Origin: a plasmid | Length of the DNA stretch: 64,000 nt | Direction: 5' to 3' (one strand) | Sequence record: NZ_CP143948.1 | In this document: positions 1,502 to 60,099 of the stretch, one piece after another | Position numbering within the stretch: position 1 is the first letter of the stretch | Layout of the letters: every line of letters begins with the position of its first letter | Program-made: the position numbers and the translations under genes | The notes under the pieces: model-generated | The model's input: only the letters and a program-made list of their open reading frames with translations | Database searches by the model: none | What the model was told of the DNA's origin: nothing

Positions 1502-3838
1502 TCAATTTCGCATTATTGCAATAACAGATTGCTTCTTCCATGAATGAATAAGCAATATTGTCATCAAACTTTCAAGCATAAACATAGCAACAGCAAAAAG
1601 AGTAAAAGCAACAACCGGAAATACAAATCCCGTAGACATGCCTGCATTTTTCAAAAATATACCGATTGCATATCCGCCGGGGATTCCAACAACAGCAGTT
1701 ATAAGCAATGCAATCAAAGTAGTAAAAAGACCTTCCATCATAAATGCTTGCTTCAACTGCTTATTTGTCATACCAATAGATTTTAGTGTGCCCATTTCCT
1801 GTTTGTGTGATAAAAGATTTGTCACAGTAAGATTGATTTGATTGATGACCGCAAATATCCACAAGATGGCTGCAATCGCATAAGCTAATGTAAAACCTGC
1901 ACGATTGTCTGATTGGTGTTCTACAATAAAATCTTGAAGGGTTTGTAAGCGAACATCCCTATTGTCAGAAACGAGTAATTTGAGTTCTTGCTCGATTATC
2001 TCCTGATATTCAGCTTCTGCTTGTATTTCGATTGCGTATGTACAGTCATAACCTGCAAGTTCTTTGAGCATATTTTCCGGCATTCTGAAAATATAGCCAC
2101 CCATTCCATCATTGCTGGAAGTGATTGCACCAATTTTGAATGCTTTTGTTATTGTTTTACCACTATGATTTTTGAAATTAAAGGTCACAGTATCCCCAAT
2201 TTGAGGTTTCCAATGGTAAACATCATAAATACGTTCGGGATCACTTACAACTAATTCTGTATCATCAGTAATATTTCCAGATAAAACCGCTGCATTTAGC
2301 GACGCCAAATCCTTTTCATTATAGCCGAGCATCAAGGTGCTATCTGAAATATCATTGTCTGTTGAAAAATCAACTGGTACGGTAGCATAAGTAAATATAT
2401 TGCTAACTCCCTCTATATCTCCAACACGCTTTACATAATCAGAAAAATATTCTTTCTGCAAGAGAGCATCCAAATTTTCACTTTCGTTTTCTAAATCAAT
2501 GCTGATTTTGAAATCTCCGTACTTCATATCCCAATAACGAGCCATACTCTCGGCATTAAAAGAACTCTGATAACTTGCTGCAAGGAAAAATATAACTCCG
2601 CACAGTCCCAATGATAAAATGGTCAATAGAGATTTTTTTCTGTTTCTGGAAAAGCTGATTTTCGCTAAATATACAGGCGTAATACGATGTCTTTTGTGAG
2701 TGCGGTAATTTACAATTCCCACTGGATTTTTCAGGGCGGAAATTGGAGAAGTATTCGCTGCAATTTTTGCTGGTTTACGAACACTAATATAAACAAGCAG
2801 TATTCCAAAAAGGCATGCGCCACATAGAGAAACAATAAATGCAAATACTGACCAGCCTTTTGATTGCAGACAATAGCTGATGATCGTTCCCATGATACTA
2901 CCAATTAAAATCCCCGGAACTGCAAGCATATAACCCTGTTTAAGAACTATTTTATAAATTTGCTTTTTACTTGCCCCTATTGTCCGAAGCTGTCCGAACT
3001 CAGCAACTTTTTGTCCAACCGAAATATAGAAAATGCTGTAAATTACAAGTGCGGCAGCTAAAAACAAAATGGCAGCAACTACACCATATACCGCATAATT
3101 ACTGAAGGACAAAGTTGTATTTACATAATCATAGTAACTGCTGACTGTCCAATTATTCAGTCCAGTCTCCTCTGAAATTTGAGATAATATTTCTGTTGCT
3201 TCGTCTTTTGTAAGGGTATCTGCATTTTCAAGCCAAACATATCCATTAAGCAGGTTATTTCCACGTAATTCCCGGCATTTTTCAAGTGAAACAAAAACAG
3301 GATAAGCGGTAGAAGTTTTATCATGATAAATACCAACAATAGTATAATTCTTCAAAGTACCATCCAGATTCAACTGAACTATGGCGTTGATTTCCGGAGA
3401 CTTATTTTCACTGGCAAAAAAGGCATCTGTAACAGCAATTTCACTTGCTTTCTCTGGATATTTTCCGTCAAAGGCAGGAATCAAACTAAGCATGTCATCA
3501 TCATAATAAATCAGAGACAGTTCTTTAGAATTTTCTTTCACTGTTTTGATATTACAGGAAAGTCCTACACTTTTTACTTCTTCGTTTGCTAACAACTTTT
3601 CTTTACTGTCCTGCGTAATGTCAAAGAAAATCCCTTGATGTAATCCTTCGATTTCTTTCTGATTTTGATAAATGATATTTTGCACTGTGAGCAACGACAT
3701 CATTATCATAGCAACGGCTACAATAATTGCCGAAAGGCAAAATAAGTTTTTCTTCTTATCAAAACGCACACTTTTTCGTGCTAATTTTTTAATTACTGCA
3801 CTGGTATCATTTTCAAAAGGATAATTCATAATTCCCAC
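1502..3838 (-). CDS. ABC transporter permease, FtsX family, duplicated-FtsX (MacB/BceB-like) architecture, 778 aa
   Basis: Two FtsX-like 3-4 TM bundles, each preceded by a large extracytoplasmic domain. It sits immediately downstream of the ATPase, with a 5-nt gap. Confidence 0.85.
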   Translation of the reverse strand: MGIMNYPFENDTSAVIKKLARKSVRFDKKKNLFCLSAIIVAVAMIMMSLLTVQNIIYQNQKEIEGLHQGIFFDITQDSKEKLLANEEVKSVGLSCNIKTVKENSKELSLIYYDDDMLSLIPAFDGKYPEKASEIAVTDAFFASENKSPEINAIVQLNLDGTLKNYTIVGIYHDKTSTAYPVFVSLEKCRELRGNNLLNGYVWLENADTLTKDEATEILSQISEETGLNNWTVSSYYDYVNTTLSFSNYAVYGVVAAILFLAAALVIYSIFYISVGQKVAEFGQLRTIGASKKQIYKIVLKQGYMLAVPGILIGSIMGTIISYCLQSKGWSVFAFIVSLCGACLFGILLVYISVRKPAKIAANTSPISALKNPVGIVNYRTHKRHRITPVYLAKISFSRNRKKSLLTILSLGLCGVIFFLAASYQSSFNAESMARYWDMKYGDFKISIDLENESENLDALLQKEYFSDYVKRVGDIEGVSNIFTYATVPVDFSTDNDISDSTLMLGYNEKDLASLNAAVLSGNITDDTELVVSDPERIYDVYHWKPQIGDTVTFNFKNHSGKTITKAFKIGAITSSNDGMGGYIFRMPENMLKELAGYDCTYAIEIQAEAEYQEIIEQELKLLVSDNRDVRLQTLQDFIVEHQSDNRAGFTLAYAIAAILWIFAVINQINLTVTNLLSHKQEMGTLKSIGMTNKQLKQAFMMEGLFTTLIALLITAVVGIPGGYAIGIFLKNAGMSTGFVFPVVAFTLFAVAMFMLESLMTILLIHSWKKQSVIAIMRN

Positions 3839-3843
3839 CTCCT

Positions 3844-4515
3844 TTAGCCAACAATTTTACCATCTTCAATCCGTACAATGCGGTCTGCGAGTTGAGCGAT
3901 CTCGTTGTTGTGAGTAATCATTACAATGGTCTGATTAAATTCTCCGCTGGTATGCTTCAAAAGCCCTAACACATCTGCACTGGTCTTGCTATCAAGATTT
4001 CCGGTCGGTTCATCAGCAAGGATAATCGCAGGCTTCGTAATTAAAGCTCGTGCAATCGCTACACGTTGCTGTTGACCGCCTGAAAGATTGTTCGGCATAT
4101 TTTCCAGTTTATCTTCTAAAGCCAACATATACACAACTTCGTCCATAAATTTCTGGTCTACTGTATCGCCATCCAGTTCCACAGGCAGGACGATATTTTC
4201 ATATACATTCAAAATCGGAACCAGATTATAATTTTGGAAGATAAATCCGATGTTACGACGGCGGAAAATTGTCAATTCATCATCATTCTTTTTTGCGAGT
4301 TCTTCTCCCCGTACAATCACGCTGCCGGAAGTGGGGGTATCAAGTCCTCCCATCATGTGAAGCAATGTAGACTTACCGCTGCCGGAAGTTCCAACTACGG
4401 CAACAAATTCTCCCTGTTCCACAGTAAAATTTACACCATTAAGGGCACGAGTAATATTTGGTTCTGTGCCGTAATACTTCTTTAAGTCGATTGTTTGTAA
4501 AATGCTCATATTCAA
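3844..4515 (-). CDS. ABC transporter ATP-binding protein (MacB/LolD/BceA type)
   Basis: Walker [10 protein letters not shown], signature [15 protein letters not shown] and Walker [12 protein letters not shown]. Confidence 0.9.
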
Positions 4516-6867: not shown

Positions 6868-7192
6868 CGTATCTTATCTCCATTTTCTTTTGATAATCAG
6901 TTACAGAGTTAAATATCGAAAACATTTCAATCAGTTCACCATGTCGTTATTGTTATATGTTATATTGTGTTATGAAATTTTCTTTCCCTTAATTTTTCCC
7001 ATATTAAGGTTCATGAAAAGCAATGGGAAAATGTAACACAAGGGAAAGAGTAAGGGAAAGTTCACTTGCTACAAACTTAGTATTTTCAAGGGTTTGCGAA
7101 GAATTTGATAATCAAATATAACAGTTATTAAATTTCCTAAAATATGTGAAATATCAATTATAATTTGATAAGCTCCTCTAAGAGATTATGTT

Positions 7193-7543
7193 TCAATTTT
7201 CTTCTATGTATTTCACTACTCTATCTATATTTCCGCTTTCATATTCATCATGTGTTAATTTGAAACACTCATCCTTACTAACACTGCTGTAGTCTATATA
7301 CCTAGCAATATCTTCTGGAATTAAAAACAAGTTTACTCCTTCTCGTTTCAGCGATTGTAAATCTCCGTGATTGACATCAACAATTACTTCCGCTTCCCAA
7401 TTTTTTGCTTTAATTGCAGACTGTAAATTTTCTTTTAATACAGTACTTCTCTTTTTTTTAAAAATATTAAAATGTCCATCATGTCCAACCTGTGAATTTC
7501 TCCCATTAGTTACATAGGGTACAATGGCTATTTTTTTTATCAT
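7193..7543 (-). CDS. Hypothetical 116-aa alpha/beta protein
   Basis: Start trimmed to MIKKIAIVPY, with AGGAGG 8 nt upstream. The predicted fold is alternating beta-alpha (Rossmann/flavodoxin-like); no known family recognised. Confidence 0.5.
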   Translation of the reverse strand: MIKKIAIVPYVTNGRNSQVGHDGHFNIFKKKRSTVLKENLQSAIKAKNWEAEVIVDVNHGDLQSLKREGVNLFLIPEDIARYIDYSSVSKDECFKLTHDEYESGNIDRVVKYIEEN

Positions 7544-7624
7544 TAACTTGTCCTCCTTTTCCACTTCTTATAACTTCTAATTTTACTTAAACTTTTTTCA
7601 CCTTAAAAAACTGGGATTTTCGCA

Positions 7625-8005
7625 TTATTTCTGTTGTGCCTTAACAAAAATGCTCTCTGTTACAAGGGCTATCGTTATAAGGGCTCCTACAAGGGAGTAA
7701 TTGTTTAATCCATACATCAACGGCATAAGAGAAATAACTGCTGTAATAATCGAAAGAACAAACAAGGCGTTAAAAACGCTATCTTTCTTCAAAGAAATCA
7801 ACGAAAGCAACAAAATAACAACAGTAAGTATGGCTGTAATAAGTGGAGCAAAATTTGCATATCCAAACGGTATAAGACTAAAGTATGAAAATGTTTCTCT
7901 TACTCTTTCTGTTGGAGATGGAGCAAAAGTACAAACTGCTCCCAGTGGTAATGCTTCTAACACTATTGTTAAAGCCGGAAAAACCACTAAGCTGATTTTT
8001 TTCAT
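7625..8005 (-). CDS. Hypothetical small integral membrane protein, 4 predicted TM helices, 126 aa
   Basis: GGAGG 8 nt upstream of the ATG. Four hydrophobic segments. Confidence 0.5.
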   Translation of the reverse strand: MKKISLVVFPALTIVLEALPLGAVCTFAPSPTERVRETFSYFSLIPFGYANFAPLITAILTVVILLLSLISLKKDSVFNALFVLSIITAVISLMPLMYGLNNYSLVGALITIALVTESIFVKAQQK

Positions 8006-8051
8006 GTTGTGTACCTCCGTCTACAAATCGTGGTTTGTTGATGCAAAACTA

Positions 8052-8207
8052 TTAAGACTTATCTTCGTTATTATCGCTCTTAAATAAACCGATAATAACA
8101 ACAATCAGACCTAAAACACCACCTCCAAACGCAATGATATTATCTATGGATAGAGCAATTGCCGCAAGAATGATTGCTATACCCAATAACATTATTTTTG
8201 TTCCCAT
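8052..8207 (-). CDS. Putative 51-aa single-TM peptide (MGTKIMLLGIAIILAAIALSIDNIIAFGGGVLGLIVVIIGLFKSDNNEDKS); not in the supplied ORF track
   Basis: GGAAGGAGG 8 nt upstream of ATG 8207. Hydrophobic helix with a GGG motif and a charged tail. It is co-oriented with, and directly upstream of, the 126-aa membrane protein. Confidence 0.35.
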   Translation of the reverse strand: MGTKIMLLGIAIILAAIALSIDNIIAFGGGVLGLIVVIIGLFKSDNNEDKS

Positions 8208-8389
8208 TCATTCCGCCTCCTTCCTATTTGGTGCTTCATCTGCTCCAGACAAAACACCATTATGGCAAAAGTTAGCAATAAAAACATCATTCATAGTGCA
8301 TCCCTCTAAATGCTCCTTCTTCAATACAACTCCCAGTTTCTTTCACTTCTTGATGAAGCCATTAACCTTGATGAAATTGTTCCTGTTTC

Positions 8390-8870
8390 TTTTGTTACTC
8401 ATTTCCACGCTTCAACCGGAATACCTCGAAAGCACCAGCTTTATCCGATGCTCAAGGCACTTCTACTCCAGCGTATTTTTTTCAATCCCGACAGATACGC
8501 TCCTGCTTGCGTTCCTAGAGTACTCTCAGGAACTTCGTGATTTCTGCGACTTTGATGCTGTTCCAGATGGTTCCAAATTTACACGTTTTAAACAGGACTT
8601 CTTGTTGGATTTACGATCTTCGAAGACATTGGATTTCGTAATGCTTTTATTCCTCTCCGTGCCTATCCTGGCATAGAACGTGGCTCGAAATAATGGGAAG
8701 ATACTTACAAGATCCGTGTAAATGTTGAAAATTCAATCAACCATTTCAAAGATAGTTGCAGCATTGCGAATCGTAAGACCCAGAATGAGAAAACGCTTCA
8801 TGCTGATTTACTTCTTGCCGGAATCACCCAGCTTGTTACTGTAATTGTCGCTGATAAGATTCATCAGTAC
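8390..8870 (+). pseudogene. Decayed IS1182/IS5(IS4-superfamily)-type transposase: frameshifted N-terminal DUF772 piece plus a C-terminal ~60-aa piece; the middle is deleted
   Basis: N-terminal pieces ...GIPRKHQLYPMLKALLLQRIF... and, in another frame, ...DFDAVPDGSKFTRFKQDFL... match the DUF772 transposase N-domain. The piece at 8716-8868 (IRVNVENSINHFKDSCSIANRKTQNEKTLHADLLLAGITQLV) matches the conserved transposase C-terminus. Confidence 0.5.
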
Positions 8871-9355
8871 CAATACATTCGGAGTTTGAAGCCCTTGATT
8901 GCCTGATTATTAATATGCATATAATCTTTTCTTCGCAGTTTATCTGGGAAATCTTTTAGTCATGTCTAAATTTAGAAGCACCTACTTTTCATCTTTAAGA
9001 ATCCTACGTTGCAGAATTCTTACCGCTTTTTAATCAGGAGTGCGCACTTGTTCCGCAATTACCTACTTGTTGTACTTTTTATTATCGTAACTATCCAGAA
9101 CCACCACACACATTCACAAAACCGCACGATATTTGTACTTTATCTGCACTCTGTTTAGCATCGCTGCTACACAGCTAATTTCGCTCATATTTGCGGTATG
9201 GTTGCATGGTTAACCACTCAAGTAACTAACCTATGAACTTATAATAGATAATATAAATAATATTGTCAACTGTATTTTTCTCCATATAAAAAAGACCATA
9301 CACTCAGTTGTTTTCTGAATGTATGATCCTTTAATTCATCTTATTCCCAACAGCA

Positions 9356-10255: not shown

Positions 10256-11005
10256 CTAATTCTGACAATTTAATATTCTTTTTGCACATTCTATCTGTTC
10301 CTTTGTAGGAGGCTCCACCCCTTCAAGCTGATATGGTATACCAAGCTCCTTCCACTTGAACACCCCAAGTGTGTGGTACGGCAGCACCTCAACCCTTTCC
10401 ACCGTTTTAAGTGTGTCGATAAACTCTCTAAGCTGCTTTAAATATCTCTCATCCGTGGTGATTCCAGGCACAAGCACATGACGTATCCACATTTTTTTAC
10501 CGTTTTTTGAGAGATATTGTGCCATATCAAGGATATTCTTATTTGTCTGTCCCGTAAGCTTTTTGTGCTCCTCGTCATCTATATGCTTGATGTCCAGCAT
10601 GAAGAGATCTGTATATTTCATCAGCTCATTAAATTTGCCGAAAAACGGTTCTTCCACGGTAAACGGATTTCCTGATGTGTCAAGGCATGTGTTTACACCT
10701 TTTTCCTTTGCAAACTTAAATAGCTCTGTGACAAAGTCTATCTGCAAAAGTGCTTCACCTCCGCTTACTGTGATGCCACCTGTTTGCTTCCAGTACGCTT
10801 TATAGCGCATGGCGGTCTTTAGCACCTCCTGCGGTGTCATCAGCTTTGCACCGTCATTTTCGCCGCATTTGGCCCATGTGTCCGGGTTATGGCAGTATTT
10901 ACAGCGCATATTGCAGCCCTTCAAAAATACTATATATCTCACTCCCGGGCCGTCGGCTGAGCCGAAGCTTTCTACCGAGTGTACTCTTCCTAGTGTTTCT
11001 CCCAT
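10256..11005 (-). CDS. pflA: Pyruvate formate-lyase activating enzyme (glycyl-radical enzyme activase, radical SAM)
   Basis: CNMRCKYCHNPDTW CxxxCxxC radical-SAM motif. About 249 aa, typical for PflA. Confidence 0.9.
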   Translation of the reverse strand: MGETLGRVHSVESFGSADGPGVRYIVFLKGCNMRCKYCHNPDTWAKCGENDGAKLMTPQEVLKTAMRYKAYWKQTGGITVSGGEALLQIDFVTELFKFAKEKGVNTCLDTSGNPFTVEEPFFGKFNELMKYTDLFMLDIKHIDDEEHKKLTGQTNKNILDMAQYLSKNGKKMWIRHVLVPGITTDERYLKQLREFIDTLKTVERVEVLPYHTLGVFKWKELGIPYQLEGVEPPTKEQIECAKRILNCQN

Positions 11006-11199
11006 GTTTTACCTGCCACTCAAAATGTGTTCAAATATACTCAAACACATCGAGAAATTAAAGTCCTTGCGGATACTTCTTACTGCTTCGATGTGTATGC
11101 TTTGGCGATTGTAAACAATACGCTACTCACAAGTTCGTGTACACTCCACAGTCGTAAATTCCTGCGATAGCCCGCAGTACATACTTACGTTTGCGTTTA

Positions 11200-12360
11200 T
11201 TATGCAACTTCGTAAGTTAAAGCATCTCTTAGATTAAGAGCAGCATTGAAATCCCTATCCTCAACATAACCACAATCACAACGATATATTCTATCTGAAA
11301 GCTTCAAATCTTTCTTGATAGCACCACAGCAATGACATATTTTGGATGATGGATACCATCTGTCTACGACTCTTAATTCAATACCATTTTCATCACATTT
11401 TGCTTTAAGCTTGGTTCTAAATTCATAGAACTTCTGTGACGCAACAGCTTTTGAAAGATGTCTGTTCTTCATCATTCCTGATACATTCAAATTTTCAATA
11501 GTTATATAAGATGGCTTGGTTTTCACTATCTCAGCTATTGATTTATTGATATAATCAGTACGGATATTATCTATTTTATGATGAAGTCTTTGTACTTTGA
11601 GCTTTTGCTTTTGTATATTCTTTTGAGTGGACTCTCCTTTCTTTAAGTTCTCATATTTTCGTGAGAGACATCTTTGTTCTCTACGCAGTTTCTTTTCCAA
11701 TTTTTTAATTCTTGTTGACTTATTGATATTTTTATAAGTTTTACCATTGGAAACAATCGCCAAGTCTTTTAAACCCAAGTCAATTCCTATACCACCATTG
11801 CTATTATTAGCAATCTTAACGTTGGGAATTTCTACAAGAACTGACACATAGTATCTGTCTGCTTTGACGGATACTGTACCGCTTTTGATTTTCCATCCGT
11901 CTTTAGTTGTTGGTATATAACCTTTTTCTTTAATGCGTACCCAACCTAAAGTGGGTATGTTCAGCCTATGTCTCTCACATCTACAGTCTTTAGTATTGTT
12001 CTTTACGAAATACATTTTTACATCAGATTTACCTTTCTTTTTGAAATTAGGAAAAGCGCTTTGATGTTTAAAAAATCTTGTAAATGCAGTACATCCATCT
12101 TCAATAGACTTTTTTACAGCTTTTGAATATGCTTCTTTAATCCATATTTTATCAGGATTATTAGGAATATACTCATTATTAAGCCATACGCTGAAACTCT
12201 TGCCAGTCATAAACTTTTCACCGTTATCATATAAAGTTTTGTTGTGACCGAGATAGAAGTTATAGACGTACCTACAAGTGCCAATAGTCTTGTTAATCTT
12301 GATTTTTTGCTCAATCGTCGGATTTATTTCCGTCTTGAAGCTCTTTAGCAATTTCCTCAT
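11200..12360 (-). CDS. tnpB: TnpB (IS605 OrfB / IS1341-type RNA-guided endonuclease), 386 aa
   Basis: RuvC-I-like GIDLGLKDLA, C-terminal zinc finger CHCCGAIKKDLKLSDRIYRCDCGYVEDRDFNAALNL, K/R-rich central region. Confidence 0.85.
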   Translation of the reverse strand: MRKLLKSFKTEINPTIEQKIKINKTIGTCRYVYNFYLGHNKTLYDNGEKFMTGKSFSVWLNNEYIPNNPDKIWIKEAYSKAVKKSIEDGCTAFTRFFKHQSAFPNFKKKGKSDVKMYFVKNNTKDCRCERHRLNIPTLGWVRIKEKGYIPTTKDGWKIKSGTVSVKADRYYVSVLVEIPNVKIANNSNGGIGIDLGLKDLAIVSNGKTYKNINKSTRIKKLEKKLRREQRCLSRKYENLKKGESTQKNIQKQKLKVQRLHHKIDNIRTDYINKSIAEIVKTKPSYITIENLNVSGMMKNRHLSKAVASQKFYEFRTKLKAKCDENGIELRVVDRWYPSSKICHCCGAIKKDLKLSDRIYRCDCGYVEDRDFNAALNLRDALTYEVA

Positions 12361-12961
12361 CCCTTTCTATTTGTTTTTCATACTTACGAAGTCCATACAA
12401 CCTGCAAGAGAATACATGAAGTATAGAAACAATATCCTGTACGAGTTCTTCCTGTGGTGATAGTTCTTCGTTGTTCACTACCACAATGCTTGTATTAAAC
12501 TTCATACAGAATTTTTCAAACCAATCGTAACCAAATCTGATAAATCTATCTTTATGAGTTACTATTATGGTTTTTATTTTCTGTTCCATTACTTCATTTA
12601 ATAATTCATTCCACTTTTTACGATTGTAATTAAGACCACTTCCATAATCCTCAATACACTGGTCTATAATAATACCTTTAGCATTACAAAACTGTCGCAA
12701 AAATGCAACTTGATTCTGTAAATCATCTTTTTGATTTCTTGTAGACACTCTGGCATAAATAACTACCTGACGTTTATCATTTTCAATATTTATGCCTTTG
12801 AATTGAAGGTACTGGTCATAGGTATAATAACGCCTATCAGTTGGAGTTCGATTTGCCTTTAAAGTTCCTTCTCTGTCCCAGCGTTGCAATGTCTTAACAG
12901 ACACACCTAACAGTTCAGCAAAATCTTTTGGCTTATAATTTGTGATATTTGATGTATTCAT
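12311..12961 (-). CDS. tnpA: IS607-family TnpA serine recombinase (MerR-like HTH N-terminus plus resolvase catalytic domain)
   Basis: FAELLGVSVKTLQRWDREG HTH; VVIYARVSTRNQKDDLQNQ catalytic serine motif. 216 aa. Confidence 0.85.
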   Translation of the reverse strand: MNTSNITNYKPKDFAELLGVSVKTLQRWDREGTLKANRTPTDRRYYTYDQYLQFKGINIENDKRQVVIYARVSTRNQKDDLQNQVAFLRQFCNAKGIIIDQCIEDYGSGLNYNRKKWNELLNEVMEQKIKTIIVTHKDRFIRFGYDWFEKFCMKFNTSIVVVNNEELSPQEELVQDIVSILHVFSCRLYGLRKYEKQIERDEEIAKELQDGNKSDD

Positions 12962-13283
12962 AATAATTTACTCCTTTGAGTATATTTAAACACATTTAAT
13001 CACATTTAACAATATATTCAATTACTTATTTTCTCCTCCTAGGTTGTTGCTACTACTTTTATTTTATGGTACGGAATTTTCGGCAACCCGCCAGCCGGGA
13101 CTTTTCAATGCTCAGGTTCTTCGGGCTAAGAGGCTGTATGAATTATGATTTTGGTTTTCTATGCTTGACGCGACCGGCTTTTACACACCTTCCGAAAATT
13201 CCTTACGCTGTGGTGTTATTTAGAAAATCAGAATATGCAGGCACTTGGCCTGCACATTCTGGAATGTTGGATATTTTTTTATA

Positions 13284-15536
13284 TTACATTCTCTCGTGGC
13301 ATGTACGTGAGATTACATCGAGCTGCTGCTCTCTTGTGAGGTCGATGAACTTAACTGCGTATCCTGATACTCGGATTGTGAAGTTTGCGTACTCCTCCTT
13401 CTCAGGATGCTCCATTGCATCGATGAGCTTCTCTTTACCGAATACGTTTACATTGAGGTGATGTGCACCCTGATCGAAGTATCCGTCCATTACGTTTACA
13501 AGGTTGTCGATTCTCTCTCCCTCGTTGTTTCCGAGTGCTCCCGGATTGATGGTCTGTGTATTTGAGATTCCATCAAGCGCCCACTCATATGGAAGCTTTG
13601 TGAGTGAGTTTAAGGATGCGAGAAGTCCGTTCTGCTCTGCGCCGTATGATGGGTTTGCTCCCGGTGAGAGTGGCTCTCCGGCTTTACGTCCGTCAGGCAT
13701 TGCTCCTGTAGCTTTTCCGTATACTACGTTTGATGTAATTGTAAGGATTGATGTTGTAGGCTCTGAATCACGGTATGTGTGATGCTTCTTTAACTTGTCC
13801 ATGAATGTCTTAAGAAGCCATACACCGATTTCGTCCGCGCGGTCATCATCGTTTCCGTATTTAGGGAACTCTCCCTCGATTTCGAAATCCTTTGCCAGTC
13901 CGCTCTCGTCACGGACTACTTTAACCTTTGCATATTTGATTGCTGAAAGAGAATCGATTACGTGTGAGAATCCTGCGATTCCTGTTGCAAATGTTCTCTT
14001 TAAGTCTGTATCCATGAGTGCAAGCTCTGCTGCCTCATAGTAGTATTTGTCATGCATGTACTGGATAAGGTTTAATGTATTTACATAGATGTCTACTAAC
14101 CAGTCCATCATCTTGTCGTATTTCGCCATTACCTCGTCATAGTCAAGGTACTCTGCTGTGATAGGTGCGTAGTTTGGTCCTACCTGCTCACCTGATTTTT
14201 CATCAACACCACCGTTGATAGCGTAAAGGAGACATTTTGCAAGGTTTGCACGTGCTCCGAAGAACTGCATCTCTTTACCTGTCTGTGTTGCAGATACACA
14301 GCAGCAGATTGCATAATCATCGCCCCATACAGGCTTCATTGCGTCATCGTTCTCATACTGGATTGAGCTTGTCTCAATTGAGATGCGGGCTGCATAATCC
14401 TTGAAGGTCTGAGGAAGCTTTGATGAGTAGAATACTGTGAGGTTTGGCTCCGGTGCAGGTCCCATGTTCTCTAATGTATGGAGGAAACGGAAGTCTGTCT
14501 TTGTAACCATTGAACGTCCGTCCACACCTGTTCCTGCCACGTCAAGTGTTGCCCATACAGGATCACCTGAGAATAACTGGTTGTATGAAGGAATACGTGC
14601 AAATTTAACCATACGAAGCTTCATTGTAAAATGGTCGATGAGCTCCTGTGCTTCCTGCTCTGTGAGGATGCCCTTGTCCATATCTCTCTTGATGTAAATG
14701 TCAAGGAATGTAGATACACGTCCTACTGACATTGCTGCACCATTCTGTGTCTTGATTGCTGCAAGGTATCCGAAGTATAACCACTGAACTGCCTCTTTTG
14801 CGTTTGTTGCAGGTCTTGAGATATCATATCCGTAAATCTCTGCAAGCTTCTTCATATCCTCAAGACATTTAATCTGCTCTGCGATTTCCTCTCTTAAACG
14901 GATAACATCATCTGTCATCTGTCCACAGCCACAGTTTGCCTTATCCTTCTTTTTCTCTTCGATGAGATAATCAAGTCCGTATAATGCTACACGACGGTAA
15001 TCGCCTACGATACGTCCACGGCCGTATGTGTCAGGAAGACCTGTAAGGATCTTTGCATGACGAACCTTCATCATCTCAGGTGTGTATGCATCGAATACTG
15101 CTGTGTTGTGTGTCTTATGATATTTTGTGAAAATTTCCTTGAGCTTGTCGCTTACATTGTAACCATATGTCTCAGCAGCCTGTACTGCCATCTTGATTCC
15201 ACCGTAAGGCATGAATGCTCTCTTTAACGGCTTATCTGTCTGAAGACCTACAATCTGCTCGAGGTCCTTTAATGACTCATCTATATATCCAGGGCCGTAA
15301 GCTGTAATTCCTGTTACAACCTCTGTCTCCATGTCAAGAACTCCGCCCTTGGCACGCTCCTCTTTCTGTAATTTCTGAAGCGCATCCCACAGCTTGTTTG
15401 TAGCATCTGTCGGATCAGCTAAAAAGCTCTCATCTCCGTCGTATGGAGTGTAGTTGTCCTGAATAAACTGACGGACGTTGATTTCCTCTTTCCAAAGACG
15501 TCCTTCAAATCCATCCCACTCTTTCATCTCTATCAT
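13284..15536 (-). CDS. pflB: Pyruvate formate-lyase (formate C-acetyltransferase), glycyl radical enzyme
   Basis: 750 aa. C-terminal glycyl-radical motif RVSGYAVKF and the active-site CC pair (AICCCVS). Confidence 0.95.
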
Positions 15537-15856
15537 TGTAATATCCTCCTTAAAATGTATGAATGTTACTTCGTTTGATTAGTTTTGTTTAACTGTGGTT
15601 AGTATATACTTACTACAGTATTTTTGTCAATATCCCTGTTGTTTCTTTTGAGATACATTCCCTGGTTATTTACACGACCATGGCTGATTTTATAATCAAA
15701 AAGAGCCAACTGTCCGGGTTTATCGCCCAGACGGTCGGCTCTTATTTGTTATATTTCATGTGGTTATTCCACTTATCCGTCAGTCATATAACACGTTCAT
15801 AGTAGACTATTTTTCTCAATAAAGCAATAGTGTTTTAGAACTATTTTTATTCTTTT

Positions 15857-18520: not shown

Positions 18521-18815
18521 TGGCCATGGGGCTGGGCGTAAGTCACAGAGTCCGGGCGGGCACGCCACACTCTCGCTTCCGCTACGCTTCGCAGCTAAGA
18601 TTCTGTACGAATTATGCCTTTGGGTTTTTCTATGCTTGACGAAACCGGCTTTTATGCGCCGTCCATGGCGCATAACGCCTTGCCCAGCCGTCCATGGCTG
18701 GGCATTTCTGGGTTTCATGGGCATAATTCTACAGCTTCTAAGCTGCTCCGCTATTCGCGTCCGCGAGGGTGCGACGTGCCCACCCGGACTCTGCGACTTA
18801 CGCCCCTTACGTTGT
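18521..18815. repeat. ~295-bp near-perfect palindrome (arms ~95 nt, ~85-90% complementary; ~90-nt CCATGG-rich centre); MITE-like element or long-hairpin RNA
   Basis: Left arm ggcgtaagtcacagagtccgggcgggcacgccacactctcgc...ctgtacgaattatgcc. The reverse complement of the right arm is ggcgtaagtcgcagagtccgggtgggcacgtcgcaccctcgc...ctgtagaattatgccc. Confidence 0.55.
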
Positions 18816-22744: not shown

Positions 22745-22900
22745 CAATAAAAAACCACTTACTGCAAATAAGTGGATTAAAATTAAGATAATAAAAATCC
22801 TCTTATTGTTCGATTACTCGCTCAGGTTGGCACCTTCCTGTTTTCTAACGGGGTTGCCGTGACTTCATAGATCCTTTGTATCTCCATCACTCTGAATAAG
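22745..22900 (-). ncRNA. SAM-I (S-box) riboswitch with an intrinsic-terminator expression platform, in the metK leader
   Basis: The minus strand reads CTCTTATTCAGAGTGATGGAGATACAAAGGATCTATGAAGTCACGGCAACC...GGTGCCAACCTGAGCGAG...AATAAGAG. This has the P1 (CTTAT/ATAAG) pairing, the GGTGCCAA motif and the kink-turn region. It is followed by CCACTTATTTGCAGTAAGTGG plus a T-run (22745-22776). Confidence 0.75.
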
Positions 22901-23149
22901 AGAAGTTACAATATAGAATTTTTCAAATCTCTGTCAGCTATATTACTACCACATGATATATATGTCAAGTATCATTTTCGATACAGATTTATCAATAATC
23001 CATTTTCGATACCCTATTCATTATTTATAAGCTATTTTATGCAATTATTCTTTCTTCCTTTATTGACTTTCATAATTTTTGTAATTATACTTAAATTTGT
23101 ATTTATAGTACTAAACACACAATATCAAAATAAATTTTTGGAGTAACTC

Positions 23150-59684: not shown

Positions 59685-60099
59685 AAAAAAAGTCGCCTCC
59701 TTTTCGCACTTTTAACTTCAGTACGACAAGCGGTGACTGTACACATCTCCGTGTGTGTCCTGTGGACTTTCACACGTTGTTTCTACATTTTGTAGACCAT
59801 ATCTGTTCTGTACAGTGACTTGCCGTCAGTTTCCTAACTTGACATTCGCTCCGCCGAATTCTCTGTCTCATGGACAGTAACTTCAAACTTCATAGCTATC
59901 ATGCCACAGCAAGTGATATTATACATGACGTTTACAATAATTGCAATACTTTTTTCAAAAAAAATTTATTTTTTTATTTCGGATAATATTCCATTGAAAA
60001 ATTACACTTTTGCACGTATATTATTATAGAAGAAACACGATTAAATGCAAGCAACGTGTAGTTTATTTTTACACGCAGATAAGAAAGGAATATAAACAT

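Follow-up and report, generated by a model that had tools for sequence, protein, structure and literature searches.

What is the tnpA/tnpB block that separates pflB from pflA in this stretch of DNA, how did it come to stand there, and what does it do to the gene behind it? The window analysed here comprises 64,000 nucleotides (nt) of a plasmid (sequence record NZ_CP143948.1), and on its minus strand the genes follow each other as pflB-tnpA-tnpB-pflA, all four co-oriented. We identify the inserted element as ISEre1, a structurally intact IS607-family member of the clade with RAGATH-18 RNAs and an AGGAG target-adjacent motif (TAM), and propose an account of its insertion, guide and retention. 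We put the probability of this reading at roughly 85%. The element is already known: a 2024 study published its nuclease and guide RNA and assayed them (Ren et al., Cell Res 34:370; PMC11061315). The present analysis adds its exact ends, the reading of TAM, guide and self-immunity, the polymorphism within the host species, evidence of recent mobility, selection on tnpB, and a pattern of insertion at Shine-Dalgarno (SD) sequences. TAM, target, self-immunity and empty allele are all readable from sequence here, which makes the locus a base-exact natural example of TnpB logic. Database entries with exactly the PflA, PflB, TnpA and TnpB proteins of the window carry the source name Agathobacter rectalis, one of the most abundant human gut bacteria.

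The features on which the argument rests are the following.

13284-15536, minus strand: pflB, 750 residues, formate C-acetyltransferase; Pfam PFL-like and Gly_radical.
13036-13040, minus strand: host AGGAG, the core of the original pflA SD and now the TAM, adjoining the left end.
11013-13035, minus strand: complete ISEre1 element, 2023 bp, from alignment of the occupied with the empty site.
12962-13035, minus strand: left-end non-coding region, 74 nt, with the tnpA SD and repeated TTAAATGTG-type subterminal motifs.
12975-12997, no strand: left arm of the subterminal inverted repeat, 23 nt, from BLAST of the element against itself.
12311-12961, minus strand: tnpA, 216 residues; Pfam MerR/MerR_1 at residues 9-58 and Resolvase at 66-194; catalytic S73 in YARVS.
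11200-12360, minus strand: tnpB, 386 residues; Pfam HTH_OrfB_IS605, OrfB_IS605 and a Cas12f1-like TNB domain.
11013-11199, minus strand: scaffold of the right-end element RNA (reRNA, or omega-RNA), 187 nt, from the tnpB stop to the right end; exact match to the ISEre1 reRNA.
11080-11152, minus strand: RAGATH-18 core of the reRNA; Rfam RF03064, 68.8 bits against a gathering threshold of 44.9, full-length model.
11023-11045, no strand: right arm of the subterminal inverted repeat, 23 nt, from the same self-BLAST.
10993-11012, minus strand: predicted guide/target GTAAAACATGGGAGAAACAC, 20 nt of host DNA outside the right end; the pflA ATG is at 11003-11005.
10256-11005, minus strand: pflA, 249 residues, pyruvate formate-lyase (PFL) activating enzyme; Pfam Radical_SAM.

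The identity of the element follows from its nuclease and its RNA. The TnpB is identical at 386 of 386 residues to ISEre1 TnpB (RHB06265.1, from [Eubacterium] rectale AM42-1; entry 13 of Table S2 in Ren et al.), and the 187-nt scaffold (window 11199-11013, last bases GGCAG) is identical to the ISEre1 reRNA of the same table. RAGATH-18 follows tnpB directly, with no overlap into the open reading frame (ORF), and its conserved 5′ and 3′ flanks extend up to the right end; the motif was the sole match in a permissive Rfam search of 10800-13500. The RuvC triad D194/E289/D370 and the zinc-finger cysteines (CHCC...CDC) are present in TnpB, as are all the TAM-contact residues N61, N62, K80, K83, Y117, N121, N122 and S160. 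The best matches of TnpA in the Protein Data Bank (PDB) are the catalytic domains of IS607-family TnpA (3lhk, 3ilx, 6dgc and 6dgb). The tnpA and tnpB frames, in the same orientation with tnpB downstream, overlap by exactly 50 nt (12311-12360), and the insert has a G+C content of about 0.31-0.35, against about 0.45 in pflA and pflB. Domains, overlap, full ORFs, S73, zinc finger and RuvC residues bear out the intact and possibly active IS607-family tnpA/tnpB element seen in a preliminary description of this DNA, and neither ORF of the window copy has the frameshift that the description had named as a ground for doubt.

Ren et al. reported that IS607 TnpBs beside RAGATH-18 RNAs are RNA-guided DNases, with a 5′-AGGAG TAM in 18 of 22 strains (PMC11061315). 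In ISFba1 TnpB, cleavage is lost with any one change in the TAM, guides work best at 20 nt, and D194, E290 and D371 are the RuvC residues. Their set counts roughly 10,000 RAGATH-18 loci, among them a subclade with a GAGGG TAM. According to the figure legends of that paper, ISEre1 was one of the TnpBs assayed for interference in E. coli, both with plasmids (AGGAG TAM) and with the genome, and for the formation of indels in HEK293F cells. The preliminary description had called this TnpB a candidate programmable nuclease; with the exact TnpB and scaffold listed among assayed systems, that was an understatement. Its classification was right, yet it missed the RAGATH-18 scaffold, the TAM and guide logic and the SD location. 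Ren et al. remarked on "AG-rich cognate TAMs" next to putative left ends (PMC11061315); in the searched portions of their main text and supplements we found no mention of tnpA, of the pflB-pflA location, of the SD context or of population polymorphism of ISEre1. Entry 49 of their Table S2 lists a different IS607 TnpB, "ISEre2" (starting MLKSFKT), for the type strain E. rectale ATCC 33656, which shows that the IS607-TnpB family is represented in A. rectalis by more than a single lineage.

With the published ISEre1 the window element shares TnpB, scaffold, host species and the AGGAG TAM, without any difference in nuclease or RNA. The nearest solved structure, the ISFba1 TnpB-reRNA-DNA complex (PDB 8IAZ), contains a full-length homologue (E=5e-226, with roughly 86% identity judged from the printed alignment) with the same RuvC triad, the same TAM contacts and the same reRNA build of 5′ flank, RAGATH-18 core and 3′ flank ending in GGCAG. 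The window TnpB is one residue shorter than that of ISFba1, the scaffolds differ in the variable stem that separates RAGATH-18 core and right end, and the host is another.

The ends of the element were fixed by comparison with an empty site. A look-up with the exact PflA returned ten long contigs, nine of which have the insert at the same place; the tenth (L009) has a pflB-pflA spacer of 255 nt, ...CAACAACCTAGGAGGTAAAACATGGGAG. Writing a junction as a slash, the empty site is CCTAGGAG/GTAAAACATG, that is, CCTAGGAG-GTAAAAC-ATG, and the occupied window is ...CCTAGGAG/GAGAAAATAAGTAATTG......TTTTGAGTGGCAG/GTAAAACATGGGAG. The left flank of the window element terminates in CCTAGGAG, the element starts with GAGAAAATAAGTAATTG and stops at ...CACATTTTGAGTGGCAG, and there are 248 nt between the pflB stop and the insert and 7 nt between the insert and the pflA ATG. 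It splits AGGAG-N7-ATG, so that the pflA SD, AGGAG, is parted from its start codon. An insertion precisely between pflB and pflA, as first described, is thereby confirmed and narrowed to the interval between the AGGAG and the ATG of pflA. The coordinates 11050-13284 first given for it have the right location and loose edges; the right edge takes in the 248 nt of native spacer, and the left edge omits 37 nt of the right end.

The insertion produced no target duplication, and AG(G) alone is common to both junctions (AGGAG/GAGAAAA...GGCAG/GTAAAAC). The tips are without terminal inverted repeats; the only inverted repeats are subterminal, 23 nt long with 22 of 23 positions matching, and are a candidate binding site for TnpA. 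The right-end boundary coincides with the published end of the ISEre1 reRNA. The left-end non-coding region has 0 segregating sites among 18 alleles, and in relatives the left end is conserved from about position 7, at TAAGTAAT. A GG target dinucleotide, proposed in the preliminary description, does span both junctions in the window copy (G/G). The base after the right-end CAG varies among G, A, C and T in 45-73 related copies, and the dinucleotide shared there is AG; GG as a family rule was rejected in favour of AG, though it fits the window copy.

These junctions place the element among known IS607 systems. Helicobacter pylori IS607 and the IS607-type IStron of Clostridium botulinum share with it the two-gene layout, a serine-recombinase TnpA with an N-terminal helix-turn-helix, tips without inverted repeats, the lack of target duplication, a core dinucleotide at both junctions, and a TnpB TAM that is also the target motif of the transposase. 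The junction dinucleotide is AG in AGGAG for the ISEre1 clade and GG in TGGG for those two systems; in contrast to the C. botulinum IStron, ISEre1 has no group I intron, and its guide RNA does not overlap the tnpB ORF. The TnpB of ISDra2 and the IS200-IS605 group (PDB 8BF8, 8H1J and 8EXA) is likewise a RuvC RNA-guided nuclease beside a transposase, with a guide from the right flank and a proposed role in retention. It is only distantly similar (E=1e-41), however, and that group differs in its tyrosine HUH TnpA with single-strand transposition, its T-rich TAM (TTGAT), and an omega-RNA that overlaps the 3′ end of tnpB.

How could the element be retained at this site? In empty sites the same 20 nt, GTAAAACATGGGAGAAACAC, directly follow AGGAG and make a perfect TnpB TAM and target. 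At the occupied right junction the five bases before the target are GGCAG, with two mismatches to AGGAG. Single TAM mutations abolish ISFba1 cleavage (Ren et al.), and therefore the GGCAG junction of the occupied allele should be immune. The pflA start codon falls on guide positions 8-10. The sequence prerequisites for retention or homing driven by TnpB are thus in place, since the empty site offers a TAM with its target and the occupied one has GGCAG.

Elements with an IS607-type TnpA leave and enter DNA as circles through a core dinucleotide, and their retention is promoted by TnpB (bioRxiv 10.1101/2023.11.20.567912). On this pattern, TnpA would insert a circular form of the element at the AG(G) in the ribosome-binding site of pflA, with no duplication of the target. 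AGGAG and GTAAAACATG would thereby come to flank the element, whose genes would point the same way as pflB and pflA. Transcription of tnpB would run on over the 187-nt scaffold and past the right end to give a guide RNA carrying the first 20 nt of the flank, GTAAAACATGGGAGAAACAC. Excision of the circle by TnpA would restore the AGGAG+GTAAAAC... joint, which TnpB, judging from other TnpB systems, could cleave. Repair of the break made by TnpB and reRNA from an occupied sister chromosome may then keep the element or let it home into empty alleles, and the GGCAG junction of the occupied allele is predicted to be spared.

The site is polymorphic in A. rectalis. Among 27 metagenome contigs that match the left flank exactly, 18 are occupied and 8 empty, and 1 ends after GAGAAA and is probably occupied; all the empty sites carry the identical CCTAGGAGGTAAAACATG joint. 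An empty pflB-pflA site, which the preliminary description had asked to look for, thus exists within the same species (L009, and 8 of the 26-27 metagenome contigs), and the insertion is not an ancient fixed one. We built a neighbour-joining tree from 1.9 kb of flank aligned with MAFFT, with 6 usable empty alleles; ungapped flank distances were discarded because indels inflated some of them to 700-850 differences. The 6 empty alleles are interspersed among the occupied ones. One of them (L123) has 3 aligned differences from the window haplotype over the approximately 1.9-kb flank, and the most divergent flank haplotype (L112) is occupied. The interspersion fits repeated loss and gain, or recombination, and speaks against a single ancient fixed insertion.

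A second insertion site was also found. Positions 2326-4348 of a 407-kb gut metagenome contig (L097) hold a 99.9% identical copy with the same ends and the exact TnpB protein. This copy differs at 2 positions in 2023 bp and sits in AAGGAG/element/AACAATATG, again an SD-ATG site. The sole 100% match among the matches listed is a 1966-bp contig (L011) binned as a metagenome-assembled genome of Brachyspira sp.; it has the same left flank as L097 and is almost certainly mis-binned. The matches listed from a one-genome-per-species scan with TnpB include no A. rectalis representative genome with the element, which does not prove its absence.

Of 23 occupied alleles that we were able to extract, 19 have a full-length tnpA and 20-21 a full-length tnpB. 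Single-nucleotide polymorphisms were counted in the 18 alleles of exact length. The segregating sites of tnpB are 14 synonymous and 1 nonsynonymous, over 230 synonymous and 928 nonsynonymous sites, a ratio of about 0.02; tnpB is under strong purifying selection within the species. Frameshifts or indels were seen in tnpA of L106, L113 and L117 (a 26-bp deletion in the last) and in tnpB of L002. In L008 tnpB is truncated and pflB is split too, which looks like noisy assembly.

Several points weigh against the reading of a mobile element retained by its TnpB. Excision, transposition and cleavage in A. rectalis are predictions. The polymorphisms within tnpA are 3 nonsynonymous and 2 synonymous, with no sign of constraint, and TnpA activity is predicted only. 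Broken tnpA occurs in 3-4 of the 23 alleles and broken tnpB in 2-3, some of which may be assembly errors. A scan for sigma-70-like promoters yielded none above background for tnpA, reRNA or pflA. Strains that exchange DNA by homologous recombination, or metagenome contigs that are chimeric, could account for the interspersion of empty and occupied alleles in place of excision or homing. Nucleotide diversity (pi) over flanks and element is 0.019, 0.0046 (element) and 0.0031 (pflA flank), values that do not give the date of the insertion.

Some of these points could be turned into the view that the element is an old insertion that no longer moves, its presence and absence reflecting lineage sorting and homologous recombination between strains. 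A. rectalis recombines readily, some alleles carry frameshifts, and the pi of the element is of the same order as that of the pflA flank, which fits long residence. Such a relic would hardly have a copy with 2 differences at another SD site (L097/L011), nor an empty allele as close to an occupied haplotype as L123. The two ORFs, the reRNA and the two ends are undamaged and do not differ from those of a system that has been tested for activity, and relatives with 90-96% amino acid identity occupy different sites over many genera. We regard this view as very improbable.

What does the insertion do to pflA? The leader changes from AGGAG-GTAAAAC-ATG in the empty allele to ...GAGTGGCAG-GTAAAAC-ATG in the occupied one, and the calculated duplex between SD and anti-SD changes from -11.6 to -7.6 kcal/mol, about 4 kcal/mol weaker. 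The clearest effect that can be read from the DNA is predicted to be translational, with the pflA SD replaced by GGCAG and pflA translated from the weaker GGCAG(G) context. The pflA transcripts would begin within the element or before it, and would have the scaffold as a 5′ leader. At about 70% occupancy, this loss of the ribosome-binding site in front of the gene for the PFL-activating enzyme is a common structural polymorphism, and it may add to strain differences in formate metabolism.

Is the SD site peculiar to pflA? Relatives were collected by the one-genome-per-species TnpB scan, and all counts for the family rest on the matches listed. At least 80 loci were obtained, with relatives 73-96% identical in many genera of gut Firmicutes; the close relatives (90-96%) are at different sites in many genera. 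The right end is conserved up to ...CACATTTTGAGTGGCAG, always with CAG, and unrelated sequence lies beyond it. The left flank nearly always terminates in (A)GGAG. An automatic call of the nearest AG gave AGGAG at no fewer than 35 of 45 left junctions; it mis-registers copies that start with AGAAAAT, and reading by eye would raise the count to about 41 of 45, so that 35 of 45 is a lower bound.

Right flanks show where these AGGAG sites lie. In 60 of 73 unique right flanks (82%), a co-oriented ORF of 50 or more codons starts at an ATG, GTG or TTG within 2-12 nt, the mode being 6-8 nt. When the host DNA of those loci was put to the same test, 28% of AGGAG sites passed it, as did 12% of random positions, and the enrichment (60/73 against 28%) has a binomial p of about 1e-21. 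The SD-niche pattern itself is thus solid. The start codon is inside the predicted guide in nearly every relative, and replacement of the SD by the right end weakens the predicted SD duplex from a family mean of -8.3 to -4.8 kcal/mol. Judged by eye from translations, the genes hit look like response regulators, uvrA, glmS, ispG, argJ, hisC, recJ, map, birA and LysR-type regulators. The start codons of uvrA-like genes were hit independently twice, in an uncultured Clostridium sp. (L035) and in Blautia schinkii (L056), by different family members with different flanks.

Two explanations of the pattern were rated about equally. The first, which we hold tentatively and at slightly less than even odds, is that the clade is specialised for translation-initiation regions, the host SD serving as TAM and recombination site and the spacer with the start codon as guide target. 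If this is true, the element would ride on host-gene transcription, the host SD would be swapped for its own right end GGCAG, and reRNA production would be coupled to the 5′ end of the host mRNA. The niche would then be general and apparently undescribed, with many genes of gut Firmicutes affected and pflA one polymorphic example. The second explanation, for which the odds seem even, is that purifying selection alone produced the location. Intragenic AGGAG insertions would have been lost, nearly all intergenic AGGAGs would be SDs, and no specificity beyond AGGAG would be needed.

A filter of that kind agrees with a TAM requirement of just 5 nt and with the 13 of the 73 unique insertions that have no obvious adjoining ORF start. 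It also agrees with the broad integration of the related CboTnpA in E. coli, for which a short motif suffices (bioRxiv 10.1101/2023.11.20.567912). The excess of SD-positioned insertions over host AGGAG sites is, on the other hand, large, and removal of an SD should itself be costly, so that the niche is not obviously favoured by selection alone. The habit of inserting between SD and start codon suggests a systematic interplay with host translation-initiation regions and bears on the persistence of TnpB elements; where TnpBs with an AGGAG TAM are used in bacteria, every strong ribosome-binding site is a potential TAM. No paper on targeting of SD or ribosome-binding sites by IS607 or TnpB was found in the open-access full-text literature, and the text of Ren et al. 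(PMC11061315), as far as it was searched, and a 2026 review do not mention such sites.

The family pattern also bears on whether the element has been co-opted at pflA. It might be kept since TnpB and reRNA modulate pflA, by occluding or consuming the start-codon region or by element-derived transcription. The high population frequency would suit such a regulator, and so would the weaker SD and the very strong purifying selection seen on tnpB and not on tnpA. With the ATG at guide positions 8-10, a transcript matured into reRNA cannot also encode PflA, and TnpB-derived RNA-guided repressors (TldR) offer a precedent. The known domesticated TldRs are nuclease-dead, however, while the RuvC triad here is intact and the identical protein has been assayed as a nuclease (Ren et al.). 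In addition, tnpA is intact in most alleles, selfish retention predicts purifying selection on tnpB too, and the start codon lies in the guide at dozens of unrelated genes, which makes this geometry a property of the family niche and not an adaptation to pflA. A regulatory role is in our judgement improbable, and we keep to the reading of ISEre1 as an element probably retained through its own nuclease.

The transcription of the locus involves two further features.

15718-15797, minus strand: ZMP/ZTP riboswitch (pfl motif) upstream of pflB; Rfam RF01750, 57 bits against a gathering threshold of 39.
13229-13261, minus strand: terminator-like hairpin after pflB, with a 14 bp stem and a T-run, in the native spacer.

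The hairpin is GC-rich and present in empty-site strains too; pflB and pflA may therefore not be simply co-transcribed even without the insertion. No Rfam family or known leader matched the remaining approximately 190 nt of the GC-rich pflB-pflA spacer. The preliminary description held that, if the element is active, expression of pflA requires a promoter within it or at its edge. This does not follow, since the co-orientation makes read-through from upstream equally possible. The promoter scan, with 9 sigma-70-like matches against 9.5 expected from shuffles, gives no support for or against a pflA promoter borne by the element, and on the minus strand it gave no match in the native spacer or the left end. 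The ZMP/ZTP riboswitch probably controls transcription into the locus, and if there is read-through past the pflB hairpin, tnpA, tnpB, the reRNA and pflA would all be under a folate-stress-responsive switch.

Elsewhere in the window, and likewise on the minus strand, lie a TwoAYGGAY RNA (18584-18753, 152.8 bits), a SAM-I riboswitch (22800-22902) and an S10-Clostridia ribosomal-protein leader (59820-59901). A short ORF at 8134-8676 on the plus strand has a fragment of a DUF772 transposase domain (E=6.5e-6). It falls within a region of about 7000-9300, downstream of a pseudouridine synthase gene, where gene content varies among A. rectalis contigs: some have an IS91-type Y2 transposase and an integrase, and others have ABC-transporter genes. 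From its gene content this region looks like a strain-variable hotspot.

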